Source of the DNA: a phage | DNA length: 64,000 nucleotides | Reading direction: 5' to 3' (one strand) | Assembly (NCBI GenBank): GCA_020773975.1 | Contig: GCA_020773975.1_3638.1 | Part shown: piece after piece, positions 421-6,841 of the stretch | How the letters are laid out: each line of letters starts with the position of its first letter | Position numbering within the stretch: position 1 is the stretch's first letter | Position numbers and translations under genes: made by a program | Notes under the pieces: model-generated | What the model was told of the DNA's origin: nothing | The model's input: only the letters and a program-made list of their open reading frames with translations | The model's database searches: none

Positions 421-496
421 GGGAGTGTAGATCAGTTAGTAGATCGCTCGACCGATAATCGAGAGGACGTAGGGGCAGAGCCTACCACTCCCACCA
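421..496 (+). tRNA. tRNA-like, anticodon GAT (Ile) with atypical C33 and non-canonical T-loop
   Basis: Hand fold: acceptor GGGAGTG/CACTCCC, D-stem GATC/GATC, anticodon stem CTCGA/TCGAG loop CCGATAA, T-stem GTAGG/CCTAC but T-loop GGCAGAG, encoded CCA. Confidence 0.4.
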
Positions 497-1257: not shown

Positions 1258-1337
1258 ATGAGAGTAGCGTAACTTCACTGGGTGAAGGCTGGCCTCCAAA
1301 ACCAGTGACTAAGAGGTTCGATTCCTCACTCTCGTGC
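1258..1337 (+). tRNA. tRNA-Trp (anticodon CCA), atypical D-arm, CCA not encoded
   Basis: Hand fold: acceptor ATGAGAG/CTCTCGT, anticodon loop CTCCAAA matching bacterial tRNA-Trp, T-loop TTCGATT; D region is long and forms a CTTCAC/GTGAAG hairpin. Confidence 0.5.
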
Positions 1338-1943: not shown

Positions 1944-2034
1944 GGTTCTTTGACCGAGTGGTCGATGGTGACGGCCTGTTAAGCCGTTGGGAGGAATCTC
2001 CCCACCGAAGGTTCGAATCCTTCAGGAACCGCCA
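1944..2034 (+). tRNA. class II tRNA (Ser/Tyr-like body, long variable arm, G73) with anticodon GTT
   Basis: Hand fold: acceptor GGTTCTT/AGGAACC, Ser-like D-arm ACCGAGTGGTCGATGGT, perfect anticodon stem ACGGC/GCCGT with loop CTGTTAA, variable hairpin GGGAGG..CTCCC, T-arm GAAGGTTCGAATCCTTC, encoded CCA. Confidence 0.55.
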
Positions 2035-2446: not shown

Positions 2447-2523
2447 GGGCGATTGATGGAATTGGTATACATGTCAGGCTTAGAACCTGAATTTTGGGGG
2501 TTCGAGTCCCTCATCGCCTACCA
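2447..2523 (+). tRNA. class I tRNA with anticodon TAG (would read CUA/Leu) and A73
   Basis: Hand fold: acceptor GGGCGAT/ATCGCCT, anticodon stem TCAGG/CCTGA loop CTTAGAA, short variable loop, T-arm GGGGGTTCGAGTCCCTC, encoded CCA. Confidence 0.5.
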
Positions 2524-2528
2524 ATCAT

Positions 2529-2604
2529 GTGACGGTAACTCAGTTGGTAGAGTGCCTTGCTGAAGACTAGGTGGTCACAGGTTCGAACCCTGTCCGTCAC
2601 ACCA
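2529..2604 (+). tRNA. tRNA-Phe (anticodon GAA)
   Basis: Hand fold: acceptor GTGACGG/CCGTCAC, D-arm CTCAGTTGGTAGAG, anticodon loop CTGAAGA, T-arm CACAGGTTCGAACCCTGT, encoded CCA. Confidence 0.65.
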
Positions 2605-2610
2605 AATTAT

Positions 2611-2689
2611 TGCAGAGTGGTGGAAATGGATTTACCATGTTAGGTTCATACCCTGAAGATTGCAGGTTCGACTCCTGCCTCTGCATCCA
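2611..2689 (+). tRNA. tRNA-Met (anticodon CAT; Met or lysidine-Ile)
   Basis: Hand fold: acceptor TGCAGAG/CTCTGCA, anticodon stem TTAGG/CCTGA loop TTCATAC, T-arm GCAGG-TTCGACT-CCTGC, encoded CCA. Confidence 0.6.
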
Positions 2690-2707: not shown

Positions 2708-3133
2708 TTGAAAATATGTGGTTGTTGTAATAAATTAAAGGATTTCTCTGAGTTTAGTAAAAAATCAGCAGCAAAAGACGGTTATGCAAGTAAATGTAAA
2801 GAGTGCCACAATAACTATGTTAGAACTAAATGGTATCCTAGGAATAAAAAGAAGCACATCTCTTCCGTAGCTAAATATAAGAAGCTAAACCCTTATAAAA
2901 TAATTTCACATAGGTATGGTATACCAGAAGATATTGTTGAAAATATAATGTCAAAAGGTGAATGCGAGATTTGTGGCTCAACAGAAAATCTTGTTTTTGA
3001 TCATATACATCTGACAAATACTGCTAGAGGATGTCTTTGTACTCTATGTAATATAATGATTGGAAGATTGGGTGATACGAACGAAGAGATTTTAGAAAAA
3101 CTCCCTAAAATTTTAGCCTATGTAAGTAAATAA
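2708..3133 (+). CDS. HNH homing endonuclease with N-terminal Cys-rich zinc-binding region
   Basis: ORF track 2660..3133 trimmed to in-frame TTG after AAGAGAGAG RBS (track start overlaps tRNA-Met); CxxC pairs and HNH signature ...NLVFDHIHLTNTARGCLCTLCN... Confidence 0.65.
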   Translation: MKICGCCNKLKDFSEFSKKSAAKDGYASKCKECHNNYVRTKWYPRNKKKHISSVAKYKKLNPYKIISHRYGIPEDIVENIMSKGECEICGSTENLVFDHIHLTNTARGCLCTLCNIMIGRLGDTNEEILEKLPKILAYVSK

Positions 3134-3139
3134 AATTTT

Positions 3140-3172
3140 GATTGGTTCGATTCCAATACTCGCAACCAGAAT
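3140..3172 (+). pseudogene. orphan tRNA 3' fragment (T-arm, acceptor 3' strand, CCA)
   Basis: TTGG-TTCGATT-CCAA followed by ACTCGCA-A-CCA; no complementary 5' acceptor strand upstream. Confidence 0.3.
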
Positions 3173-3298: not shown

Positions 3299-3324
3299 AA
3301 CCCCGCCTCTTGCGGGGTTTTTCT
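3299..3324 (+). terminator. rho-independent terminator
   Basis: CCCCGC-CTCTT-GCGGGG hairpin followed by TTTTT. Confidence 0.6.
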
Positions 3325-3373
3325 TTATGTGCTAGTCTTTACGCATCTTGTTTTGTACTCAAGGATAGCTAAG

Positions 3374-5494: not shown

Positions 5495-6841
5495 TTGAGT
5501 AAAGTATTTGGACCTGCCAGTCCTAAACAAAAAATGATTTTGGAGAGTAAAGCCCAAATTCTAATAATTGGCGGGGCCGCCGGGTGTTTGTCTAAAGACC
5601 ACGAGGTGTTGACACCATCTGGCTGGATTAAGATATCAGAATGGTCAGGGCAGGACATTCTGCAATATGATAAAGCCACTGGGGAGGCTAAATTTATCCC
5701 TCCTTTAGAGTTTGTTAAACTCCCTTGCGACAAACTTACAAGAATAGAAGGTAATGGCATTTGTCAAGAGCTATCTGACGAACATACTGTGATTTATAAA
5801 CCAGACTATAAATCACAGCCAAGAACACTTTCTTTTTCTGAAGTGGCAGAAAGACATAACAACTCTGTTAAAAAAGGTTGGACAGGTAAGTTCATAACTA
5901 CATTTAACTATGATGGGCCTGGGATAGACATGACAGAAGGGGAATTAAGGCTTCAGGTTGCTGTCATGGCTGATGGGAGAGTTGTTAAAGAAGGGAAAGA
6001 TAATTATACACAGATGCGCTTTGCTAAAAAGCGTAAATATGACCGCTTAATCGAACTTTGTAAAAAGTTTGGATTAAGATATGAAGACAGAGGATCAAAA
6101 CCCAGTGAAAGATATACCACTGGGGAACAGTACGAGGTCATTGTATGGCCTAAATATCCTGATAAAAAATTTACAGAGAAATACTATCAGTGTTCAAATG
6201 AACAACTGGAGATAATACTTGATGAGATTTTTCATTGGGATGGTTCTTTTTGTAAGCCATATGGCGGTAAAACACATAACAGCTTTACAGGTAGATATTT
6301 TACTGCTCATAAGACGAACGCTGATTTTATTCAGTTTGTAGGATCTTCTCTTGGTTATAATACCACCATAAGCCATGACACAAGAAGTGGAAAGGACAGT
6401 TATACTGTTAATATTATGGCTAGAGGAAAAGGATTAAGGTCACTGGCTAATAAAGACAGAAAAGCTGAGTTTAAAGCGTTTACACCTACGGATGGGTTTA
6501 AATACTGCTTTGTAACACAAACAGGTTTCTTTGTTACCAGACTGGAAGATTGTGTGGTTGTCACTGGGAATAGTGGAAAATCATATCTCCTACAATTGAT
6601 GCCGCTTGCTTATGTCGATGACCCGCAGACAGCATGTATAATGTTTCGTAGGACAACACCTCAATTGACAGGTGCAGGTGGACTTTTTGATACAGCGAAA
6701 AGTATTTATTTGCAACTCGATAAGGAATGGAAGCCGAAGTTCAGGGAGAAAGCTCTGGAAGCAATTTTCCCATCTGGGGCAAAGGTGTTGTGGAGACACA
6801 TGGAGTATGAGAATAACAAATTAGATCATCAGGGTGAATAG
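5495..6841 (+). CDS. terL: terminase large subunit, N-terminal coding segment (P-loop ATPase) containing an in-frame intein
   Basis: TTG start after GGAGG RBS; Walker A split as IIGGAAG-[intein]-SGKSY; lies directly upstream of portal; ORF runs to a stop inside intron-like sequence, real exon end probably 6817-6829. Confidence 0.7.
   Translation: MSKVFGPASPKQKMILESKAQILIIGGAAGCLSKDHEVLTPSGWIKISEWSGQDILQYDKATGEAKFIPPLEFVKLPCDKLTRIEGNGICQELSDEHTVIYKPDYKSQPRTLSFSEVAERHNNSVKKGWTGKFITTFNYDGPGIDMTEGELRLQVAVMADGRVVKEGKDNYTQMRFAKKRKYDRLIELCKKFGLRYEDRGSKPSERYTTGEQYEVIVWPKYPDKKFTEKYYQCSNEQLEIILDEIFHWDGSFCKPYGGKTHNSFTGRYFTAHKTNADFIQFVGSSLGYNTTISHDTRSGKDSYTVNIMARGKGLRSLANKDRKAEFKAFTPTDGFKYCFVTQTGFFVTRLEDCVVVTGNSGKSYLLQLMPLAYVDDPQTACIMFRRTTPQLTGAGGLFDTAKSIYLQLDKEWKPKFREKALEAIFPSGAKVLWRHMEYENNKLDHQGE
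5585..6571 (+). mobile_element. intein (329 aa) with LAGLIDADG-type endonuclease motifs in the terminase P-loop
   Basis: Starts with Cys (CLSKDHEVLTPSGW), ends VVVTGN followed by Ser; internal LQVAVMADG and LDEIFHWDG motifs; removal restores GGAAGSGKS. Confidence 0.7.
6809..6817 (+). repeat. 9-bp direct repeat GAGAATAAC (copy 1) flanking the terminase intervening region
   Basis: Identical 9-mer at 8778-8786; joining the copies puts exon 1 and the C-terminal segment in frame (MEYENN-PDYLAF). Confidence 0.5.

Follow-up and report, generated by a model that had tools for sequence, protein, structure and literature searches.

Transfer RNAs for leucine are filed with the long-armed class II tRNAs (PMC9976931; PMC2377443). 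The E. coli LeuRS, however, depends critically on the discriminator A73, but not on the anticodon or the long arm (PMC9976931; PMC2377443). The elements regarded as essential for leucine identity in E. coli are A15-U48, G18G19, A20a, G18:U55, G19:C56 and U54:A58 (PMC9976931). Variants of tRNA-Leu stripped of the anticodon arm as well as the variable arm are still active (PMC9976931; PMC2377443), and an Aquifex tRNA-Leu without its arm shows a reduced affinity for LeuRS (PMC2377443). The sole natural arm-less tRNA-Leu described in the identity review is the human mitochondrial one (PMC9976931).

The locus described here adds a tRNA-Leu gene of class I shape from a bacteriophage. The window, i.e. 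the whole stretch of 64,000 nucleotides that was analysed, belongs to an rV5-like myovirus of E. coli, has a GC content of 40.5%, and is 94-96% identical over its first 4 kb to the Escherichia phages Av-05 and vB_EcoM_TH18 (Vequintavirinae). The original prediction pointed to two unusual tRNA genes and one class II tRNA in this window, and proposed that they break canonical identity rules.

The tRNA array and its short-armed leucine tRNA

The tRNA array occupies positions 263-2689 of the window, where ARAGORN called 11 genes (the features discussed below are collected in Table 1). A strong hairpin followed by a T-run closes the tRNA/HNH region. The Leu, Phe and CAU tRNA genes are separated by only 5-6 nt and are probably released from a common polycistronic precursor; the order Leu-(Val)-Phe is also found in the phages PVP-SE1 and 4MG. 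Two elements of the region look damaged: one gene is Trp-like (1262-1333), and the other is the 3' half of a tRNA (3139-3172). The tRNA with the GUU anticodon was correctly predicted to belong to class II, as its variable arm is 18 nt long. The leucine gene, the isoleucine-like gene and the GUU gene each have conserved homologues in other phages, which rules out chance matches for all three.

Table 1. Features of the tRNA region, given as positions in the window.
Feature	Position	Strand	Remarks
tRNA-Ile(GAU)-like gene	421..496	+	Rfam, fold, annotated homologues, C33 enrichment, A18/G55 co-variation
Long-armed tRNA, anticodon GUU (Asn), Ser-like body	1944..2034	+	91 nt, 18-nt variable arm, G73; ARAGORN and Rfam
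Class I tRNA-Leu(UAG) gene, 77 nt, CCA encoded	2447..2523	+	ARAGORN tRNA-Leu(tag); Rfam; nearest neighbours; covariation
D-loop AATTGGTAT with A14, A15, G18, G19, A20a	2460..2468	+	Sequence; D-arm ATGG-AATTGGTAT-ACAT
Anticodon loop CTTAGAA, UAG at 2481-2483, A37	2479..2485	+	ARAGORN and sequence; anticodon stem TCAGG/CCTGA
Variable loop ATTTT, 5 nt, ends in U48 (pairs with A15)	2491..2495	+	Replaces the 11-15-nt class II Leu arm
Discriminator A73 (2520), then encoded CCA (2521-2523)	2520..2523	+	Sequence
tRNA-Phe(GAA) and CAU-anticodon tRNA	2529..2689	+	ARAGORN; 5-6 nt downstream of the Leu gene
Intrinsic-terminator-like hairpin, strong, with T-run	3299..3327	+	Closes the tRNA/HNH region

The Rfam tRNA model RF00005 aligned end to end with positions 2447-2520, with a score of 60.7 bits (gathering score 29) and an E value of 7e-12 over model positions 1-71. 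The acceptor stem GGGCGAT/ATCGCCT begins with the pair G1-U72 and is followed by U8 and G9, while the T-arm GGGGG-TTCGAGT-CCCTC presents T54, T55, C56 and A58 in its loop. The variable region of 5 nt falls within the 4-5 nt of class I, and the class II long variable arm is absent. The short variable loop, the CTTAGAA loop with its UAG anticodon and A73 had all been predicted, and each of them can be read directly in the sequence. Folding software did not restore a canonical class either: ARAGORN and Infernal both returned a short-armed UAG tRNA. A hidden intron or a mis-folded long arm was considered and rejected, as only 77 nt lie between the neighbouring features. When the gene was folded alone, the minimum-free-energy structure was not a cloverleaf (thermodynamic folding, z = -1.39); the D-stem, which is weak and rich in A/U, accounts for this, and the covariation of the family described below carries more weight.

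The K-12 tRNAs of all 20 isotypes, fetched by coordinate, served as the comparison set for the identity of the gene. In global alignment its best E. coli matches were Leu(gag), Leu(taa), Leu(cag) and Leu(tag). The 50 nearest neighbours were likewise leucine tRNAs without exception when the gene was compared with a collection of phage, mobile-array and E. coli tRNAs (about 1,850 unique sequences). Because this collection is enriched for Leu(UAG) through its selection, the ranking against E. coli is the cleaner of the two tests. The D-loop AATTGGTAT matches the E. coli Leu D-loop AATTGGTAG in length and register, and with its flanks the D-arm region reads GGAATTGGTAtAC, as against GGAATTGGTAgAC in the tRNA-Leu of E. 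coli. The D-arm itself is TTGATGGAATTGGTATACAT in the phage gene and GTGGCGGAATTGGTAGACGC in E. coli Leu(CAG), with the G13-A22 mismatch common to both; the other three E. coli Leu isoacceptors show 1-3 base differences from the Leu(CAG) D-arm.

At the sequence level the gene carries U8:A14, A15:U48, G18G19, A20a, G18:U55, G19:C56, U54:A58 and A73. Every published E. coli leucine determinant is therefore present, and the short arm is a breach of the class rule rather than of an identity rule. The contrast drawn with class II bacterial leucine tRNAs is thus real, since the K-12 Leu tRNAs measure 85-87 nt and have long arms, but the claim that leucine identity rules are broken did not stand, as the arm is a class feature.

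The anticodon loop shows a further departure. Position 37 is A in this gene and in all nine of the UAG-anticodon phage homologues compared, whereas it is G in the four E. coli CUN-reading Leu genes compared (UAG, CAG and GAG). In CUN-reading Leu tRNAs this G37 is methylated to m1G37. With A37 in place of a G37 of the m1G37 type, the fidelity of decoding may differ. The host tRNA-Leu(UAG) has the anticodon loop TTTAGGT (PMC12482277, Table 8), so that the phage loop CTTAGAA departs from it by C32, A37 and A38 in place of U32, G37 and U38.

A conserved family of class I tRNA-Leu genes

The short-armed gene is not peculiar to this one array but belongs to a large phage family. Homologues of the Leu(UAG) gene occur in about 355 phage records. 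The carriers include PVP-SE1, 4MG, GAP31, KB57, Vibrio phage Thalassa and Aeromonas phages, as well as T5-like phages of Salmonella, Escherichia and Yersinia. Most homologues are annotated as tRNA-Leu; the exceptions are those in phiR2-01 ('tRNA-Pseudo-TAG') and NBSal005 ('tRNA-OTHER'). Through labels such as 'pseudo' or 'other' on genes of this kind, errors can enter phage tRNA inventories and analyses of codon supply.

IMG/VR was searched with a pattern composed of the D-loop GGAATTGG, 13 nt, YTTAGA, 13-42 nt and GGTTCRA, which gave at least 120 matches. Among the 120 matches listed, the length of the variable region was clearly bimodal, with 5-6 nt in 69 sequences, 9-15 nt in 51 and none between. 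Since the pattern itself fixes bases in the D-loop, the anticodon loop and part of the T-arm, conservation there is not independent evidence, and conservation was counted at positions outside the fixed bases. In the 53 distinct class I relatives among the matches listed, U8, G9, U48 and A73 were invariant (53/53) and A20a was present in 52. The class I cloverleaf is also supported: in an alignment of 45 distinct Leu(UAG) relatives among the matches listed, 99.3% of the stem cells were paired, and compensatory double changes were seen in 17 of the 20 pairs. As controls for this alignment, slid versions gave only 33-47% pairing, and the covariation score was reached in none of 500 shuffles.

BLAST found no copy of the class I Leu(UAG) gene in 5,426 complete E. 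coli genomes, hence no host or prophage copy among them. Across 185,579 prokaryotic species, each represented by one genome, true class I Leu(UAG) genes of the same type numbered 46, and 34 of these lie in dense tRNA arrays (at least 5 tRNAs in 8 kb). One more of the 47 pattern matches in prokaryotic genomes was a chance match and was discarded. Given this rarity in prokaryotes and the absence from the E. coli genomes searched, the class I Leu form is characteristic of phages and mobile tRNA arrays. In the close relative TH18, whose array was followed upstream of the part corresponding to the window, 16 tRNAs were located within 14 kb, and the class I gene is the sole Leu tRNA among them. Taken together, this family is large, conserved, found mainly in phages and already labelled tRNA-Leu by the databases.

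In a neighbour-joining tree of 107 cores, 57 of the 60 class I sequences had a class I nearest neighbour, and Fitch parsimony needed 15 class changes; with 69 nt the cores are too short for this tree to separate a single origin from repeated loss of the arm.

The loss of the arm differs strongly between isotypes. For this comparison the class of each tRNA was assigned from the distance between anticodon and 3' end in the same collected phage and array loci, and Leu tRNAs with UAG, the anticodon used for selection, were excluded. The remaining Leu tRNAs comprised 76 of class I and 62 of class II, as against 5 and 159 for Ser and 2 and 76 for Tyr. In phage tRNA arrays, the arm is thus absent from about half of the Leu tRNAs and from 3% of the Ser and Tyr tRNAs, so that arm loss occurs mainly in Leu and hardly ever in Ser or Tyr. 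The loss in Leu fits a LeuRS that does not need the arm, and the retention in Ser fits an identity that rests mainly on it.

A search of the literature returned no prior description of a class I phage tRNA-Leu, though the older T5 and BF23 papers and Larkin 2002 lie outside the searchable literature and may hold an earlier one. Within the searchable literature on phage tRNA arrays, no mention of Leu variable arms or loops was found. Neither the conservation of the determinant set in class I Leu nor the near-absence of arm loss in Ser and Tyr was found in the searchable literature.

The isoleucine-like gene and the possibility of decay

The Rfam tRNA model matched positions 421-493 with 53.4 bits (gathering score 29), and the minimum-free-energy fold of the whole gene is a perfect cloverleaf that accounts for 60% of the ensemble. 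ARAGORN did not call this gene. Its anticodon loop is CCGATAA, with C33 at 453 and the GAT anticodon at 454-456, and its T-loop is GGCAGAG (474-480), with no TTC motif, all as predicted. Where T54, Psi55 and A58 are near-universal, the gene has G54, G55 and G58, and the D-loop AGTTAGTA has A at the usual G18. Only the G19:C56 pair of the elbow is kept, and the gene lacks U33 and the complete T54-Psi55-C56/G18-G19 elbow that are otherwise universal.

Features of this kind raise the question of decay, in which one or both odd tRNAs, and especially the isoleucine-like one, would be remnants left in the array. The missing ARAGORN call, the loss of T54, Psi55, A58 and G18, and the presence of further damaged-looking elements in the same array all speak for it. 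For the leucine gene, however, the strong covariation among the 45 distinct sequences and its position as the only Leu tRNA found in the TH18 array argue the other way. The isoleucine-like sequence, for its part, is 100% identical in six related phage records, and its homologues in PVP-SE1 and in Klebsiella, Proteus and Erwinia phages are annotated as tRNA-Ile.

Further evidence against decay comes from the unusual nucleotides themselves. The loop CCGATAA was found in 8 of 9 reference phage tRNA-Ile(GAU) genes from six or more phage families, while T5 and TS3 have CTGATAA. Among 1,817 unique phage tRNAs, C33 occurred in 13 of 66 Ile(GAU) genes but in only 25 of the 1,751 others. On the strength of the references and this enrichment, C33 is a recurrent trait of phage Ile(GAU) and not a lesion of one copy. 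The aberrant T-loop has a narrower distribution than C33. A18 and G55 change jointly in three diverged sequences, where the D-loop AGTTAGTA is accompanied by the T-loops GGCAGAG (the window phage), AGCAAAG (PVP-SE1) and TGCAAAC (an environmental viral contig); the relatives with G18 have TTC T-loops. One T-stem pair is also compensated between the window phage and PVP-SE1, with U:A in one and C:G in the other. In the search for this D-loop and C33 pattern, five of the eight viral matches were not tRNA-like and were set aside as chance matches. The joint changes look like an exchange of one elbow contact, G18:U55, for another, A18:G55, in a sub-lineage of Ile, and not like decay.

The E. coli isoleucine determinants include GAU, A37, A38, A73, U12:A23, C29:G41 and the minor elements C4:G69 and G16 (PMC9976931). 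The phage gene keeps GAU, A37, A38, A73, U12:A23 and C29:G41, which also speaks against decay, and has A4:U69 and U16 in place of C4:G69 and G16. C33 and the variant elbow run counter to a universal conservation of structure and do not in themselves breach isoleucine identity. Judged by these patterns, the gene is probably functional, and we consider decay of either gene unlikely. The conserved C33 of phage tRNA-Ile(GAU) and the A18:G55 elbow are natural departures from near-universal tRNA nucleotides that are open to study.

Proposed function and comparison with known systems

Our preferred reading, to which we give a probability of about 0.8, is that the gene at 2447-2523 encodes a working phage tRNA-Leu(UAG) without the long arm, and that the gene at 421-496 most likely encodes a still-functional tRNA-Ile(GAU) from a phage lineage marked by C33. 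The leucine gene would share its transcript with the Phe and CAU tRNAs next to it, and host enzymes would trim the RNA, whose CCA is already encoded. The transcript would adopt the ordinary L-shape of class I, and the published biochemistry of LeuRS suggests that the host enzyme would charge it with leucine. Its expected codons are CUA and CUG, to which a modification of U34 like that in the host would probably add CUU. The E. coli Leu(UAG) counterpart carries cmo5U34, which would widen reading to CUU. CUU, CUA and CUG account for 26%, 9% and 18% of the Leu codons in the ORFs of the window, compared with 10%, 4% and 54% in a sample of 33 E. coli genes, and K-12 has a single Leu(UAG) gene. On the basis of this codon use, the simplest role is to add to the decoding of CUN codons for which the host is poorly equipped. 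Most likely, then, the gene would supply an AT-rich phage with a host-charged tRNA-Leu that reads CUA and CUG, and probably CUU. A natural arm-less Leu family that apparently works with a bacterial LeuRS would confirm by evolution the dispensability of the arm established in vitro.

A different account of the same gene is counter-defence, in which a Leu tRNA without an arm and with an altered loop was selected because it is invisible to host or prophage tRNA nucleases and would act as a resistant Leu decoder once the tRNA-Leu of the host had been destroyed. Phages and mobile arrays would then keep an arm-less lineage that covers all Leu anticodons, having shed the arm and moved to A37 because nucleases read the arm or loop of class II tRNA-Leu. 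There is a precedent in the PtuAB nucleases of Septu and retron-Eco7, which cut the variable loop of the class II tRNA-Tyr and which the T5 tRNA-Tyr resists by means of a distinctive variable loop (PMC13096335). Loop changes have also been proposed as a way for phage tRNAs to escape anticodon nucleases (PMC10264068), and the loop in the phage departs from the host's at positions 32, 37 and 38. Phages and mobile tRNA arrays carry the class I Leu form very widely, and the RNA-repair ligase gene rtcB often stands beside the arrays with this form (10 of the 46 genome loci and 2 viral loci). On the other hand, many phages retain long-armed Leu tRNAs, and the loss of the arm may be neutral once LeuRS is indifferent to it. 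As no nuclease acting on the variable arm of bacterial tRNA-Leu was found in the literature searched, we hold counter-defence to be unlikely. If it were true, the short Leu tRNA would be a resistant replacement decoder parallel to the T5 tRNA-Tyr against PtuAB, and the frequent linkage of class I Leu arrays to rtcB would be explained. The family offers in any case a clean test of whether phage tRNAs are reshaped against tRNA-targeting immunity. An analogy in which bacterial Schlafen proteins act on long-armed tRNAs as human SLFN11 does was also considered and dropped; the paper concerned describes cleavage of the anticodon arm and makes no mention of class II tRNAs.

That the gene is instead a class I body of another identity with a UAG anticodon, inserting a residue other than leucine at CUA and CUG, is highly improbable: a short variable loop is indeed the state of every bacterial tRNA other than Leu, Ser and Tyr, and tRNAscan-type annotators sometimes refuse the isotype ('Pseudo', 'OTHER'), but the body is Leu-type by its nearest neighbours, the Leu determinant set is complete, G3:U70 (Ala) is missing, the discriminator is A73 and not the G73 or U73 of several identities, the syntenic site in T5 holds a class II Leu(UAG), and UAG mismatches the anticodon-dependent synthetases, which are those for Val, Ile, Met, Lys, Arg, Phe, Thr and Pro.

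Returning to the preferred reading of a working tRNA-Leu(UAG), the closest cellular counterpart is the E. coli tRNA-Leu(UAG), leuW. It shares with the phage gene the anticodon, A73, the G13-A22 mismatch, U8, G9 and a T-loop of the TTCRAGT type. The D-arm is nearly identical as well, reading GGAATTGGTAgAC in the E. coli CAG and GAG isoacceptors and CGAAATTGGTAGAC in leuW. The E. coli Leu tRNAs have a length of 85-87 nt, a variable arm of 11-15 nt and G1-C72, whereas the phage gene has 77 nt, a 5-nt loop and G1-U72. The same synthetase would be expected to charge both.

The engineered arm-less or minimalist E. coli tRNA-Leu molecules (Asahara 1998 and Larkin 2002, summarised in PMC9976931) likewise have no arm and rely on A73 together with D/T-loop contacts. 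These are laboratory constructs, while the phage genes form a natural, conserved family that keeps its anticodon arm intact. Animal mitochondrial tRNA-Leu is both natural and arm-less, and is read through A73 and A14 (PMC9976931). It differs in genetic system, in synthetase and in its degenerate structure, and the likeness is one of architecture. Resistance has been demonstrated for the T5 tRNA-Tyr (against retron-Eco7 and Septu PtuAB) and the T5 tRNA-Lys (against PARIS). The phage Leu(UAG) similarly departs from its host counterpart in the variable region and the anticodon loop, which are the parts that could be read by a defence nuclease.

The long-armed Leu(UAG) tRNAs of other phages provide the most direct comparison. 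Those of T5 (tRNAL1), Pseudomonas phage JG004 and Aeromonas phage SW69-9 are encoded in arrays and have A37 and A73, like the gene in the window. The JG004 (85 nt) and SW69-9 (84 nt) genes even share with it the D-arm GGAAT(T)GGTATAC. All three keep a 13-nt class II arm, where the window gene has ATTTT; for JG004 and SW69-9 this is the main difference. An amber derivative of the T5 Leu(UAG) suppresses, according to the T5 GenBank record. In T5 this 85-nt class II gene directly follows tRNA-Ala, and the T5-like phage phiR2-01 has the 77-nt form at the same site. Such a swap at one site is how functional equivalents would be expected to look.

Variable-arm length in phage tRNAs

Phage tRNAs seem to possess an unusual plasticity of variable-arm length, which operates in both directions. 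In phage arrays, isotypes that are normally short-armed were found to recur as long-armed versions (loci L004, L005 and L001 together with the viral set). The long-armed Ile tRNAs numbered 27, including the 93-nt Ile(UAU) of Vibrio phage Thalassa, and long-armed forms were likewise represented by Gly(UCC) of Thalassa (87 nt), Phe(GAA) of Aeromonas phage SW69-9 (85 nt) and a 'tRNA-Lys' of phage PVP-SE1 (86 nt). Among the 84 phage Asn tRNAs in the analysed set, 10 carried a long arm.

The GUU tRNA of the window is such a long-armed molecule. Its orthologues in phages TH18, 4MG and PVP-SE1 ranked first among its neighbours, and tRNA-Ser came next, accounting for 23 of the top 50. Because AsnRS recognizes the anticodon and G73, while SerRS mainly recognizes the long arm, dual or ambiguous charging of this tRNA is conceivable, that is, insertion of Ser at Asn codons.

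Features of the window and of comparison loci (L-numbers)
Location	Feature	Details
Window 1262-1333	tRNA-Trp(CCA)-like element	no ARAGORN call
Window 1944-2034	tRNA, anticodon GUU (Asn)	G73; variable arm 18 nt
Window 2611-2689	'tRNA-Met(CAU)'	U1-A72; U73 discriminator; D-loop 11 nt
Window 2716-3133	HNH-type endonuclease ORF	directly 3' of tRNA array
Window 3139-3172	apparent tRNA 3' half	T-arm TTGG-TTCGATT-CCAA; acceptor TACTCGC, A, ACCA
Window 5560-5600	Cys-led insertion	in ORF starting near 5500; immediately past GGAAG motif
L006 2042-2116	CUA-anticodon (amber-reading) tRNA	Aeromonas phage TS3; ARAGORN label 'Pyl'
L195 870-947, 1065-2270	class I Leu(UAG), rtcB	Marinicella marina S1101
L187, L151, L159, L163, L170, L181, L188, L193, L037, L132	class I Leu(UAG), rtcB

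Other atypical elements of the window

The candidate identities of the CAU-anticodon tRNA are Met, Ile2 or another isotype; its PVP-SE1 homologue is annotated as Met in GenBank and called Ala(ggc) by ARAGORN. AUA accounts for 28% of Ile codons in the phage and for 5% in the sampled E. coli genes. The Trp-like element gave tRNA-Sec as its sole Rfam match (34 bits, sub-threshold). The D-arm hairpin of this element is unusually long, its CCA end is not encoded, and it occupies the position of the 81-nt tRNA-Trp annotated in PVP-SE1.

The tRNA-like 3' half follows the HNH ORF and lacks a corresponding 5' half. It may be a tRNA gene that was cut down by the endonuclease insertion. Further downstream, the ORF with the Cys-led insertion may be an intein-interrupted gene.

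Neighbours of the class I tRNA-Leu(UAG)

The 'Pyl' tRNA, which may be a suppressor tRNA, shares arrays with class I Leu(UAG) not only in phage TS3 but also at loci L153 and L176. Moreover, rtcB, an RNA-repair ligase gene, adjoins class I tRNA-Leu(UAG) in 10 of the 46 bacterial loci and in 2 viral loci. In Marinicella, the tRNA gene is solitary and lies 118 nt upstream of rtcB, in a context that is apparently chromosomal.
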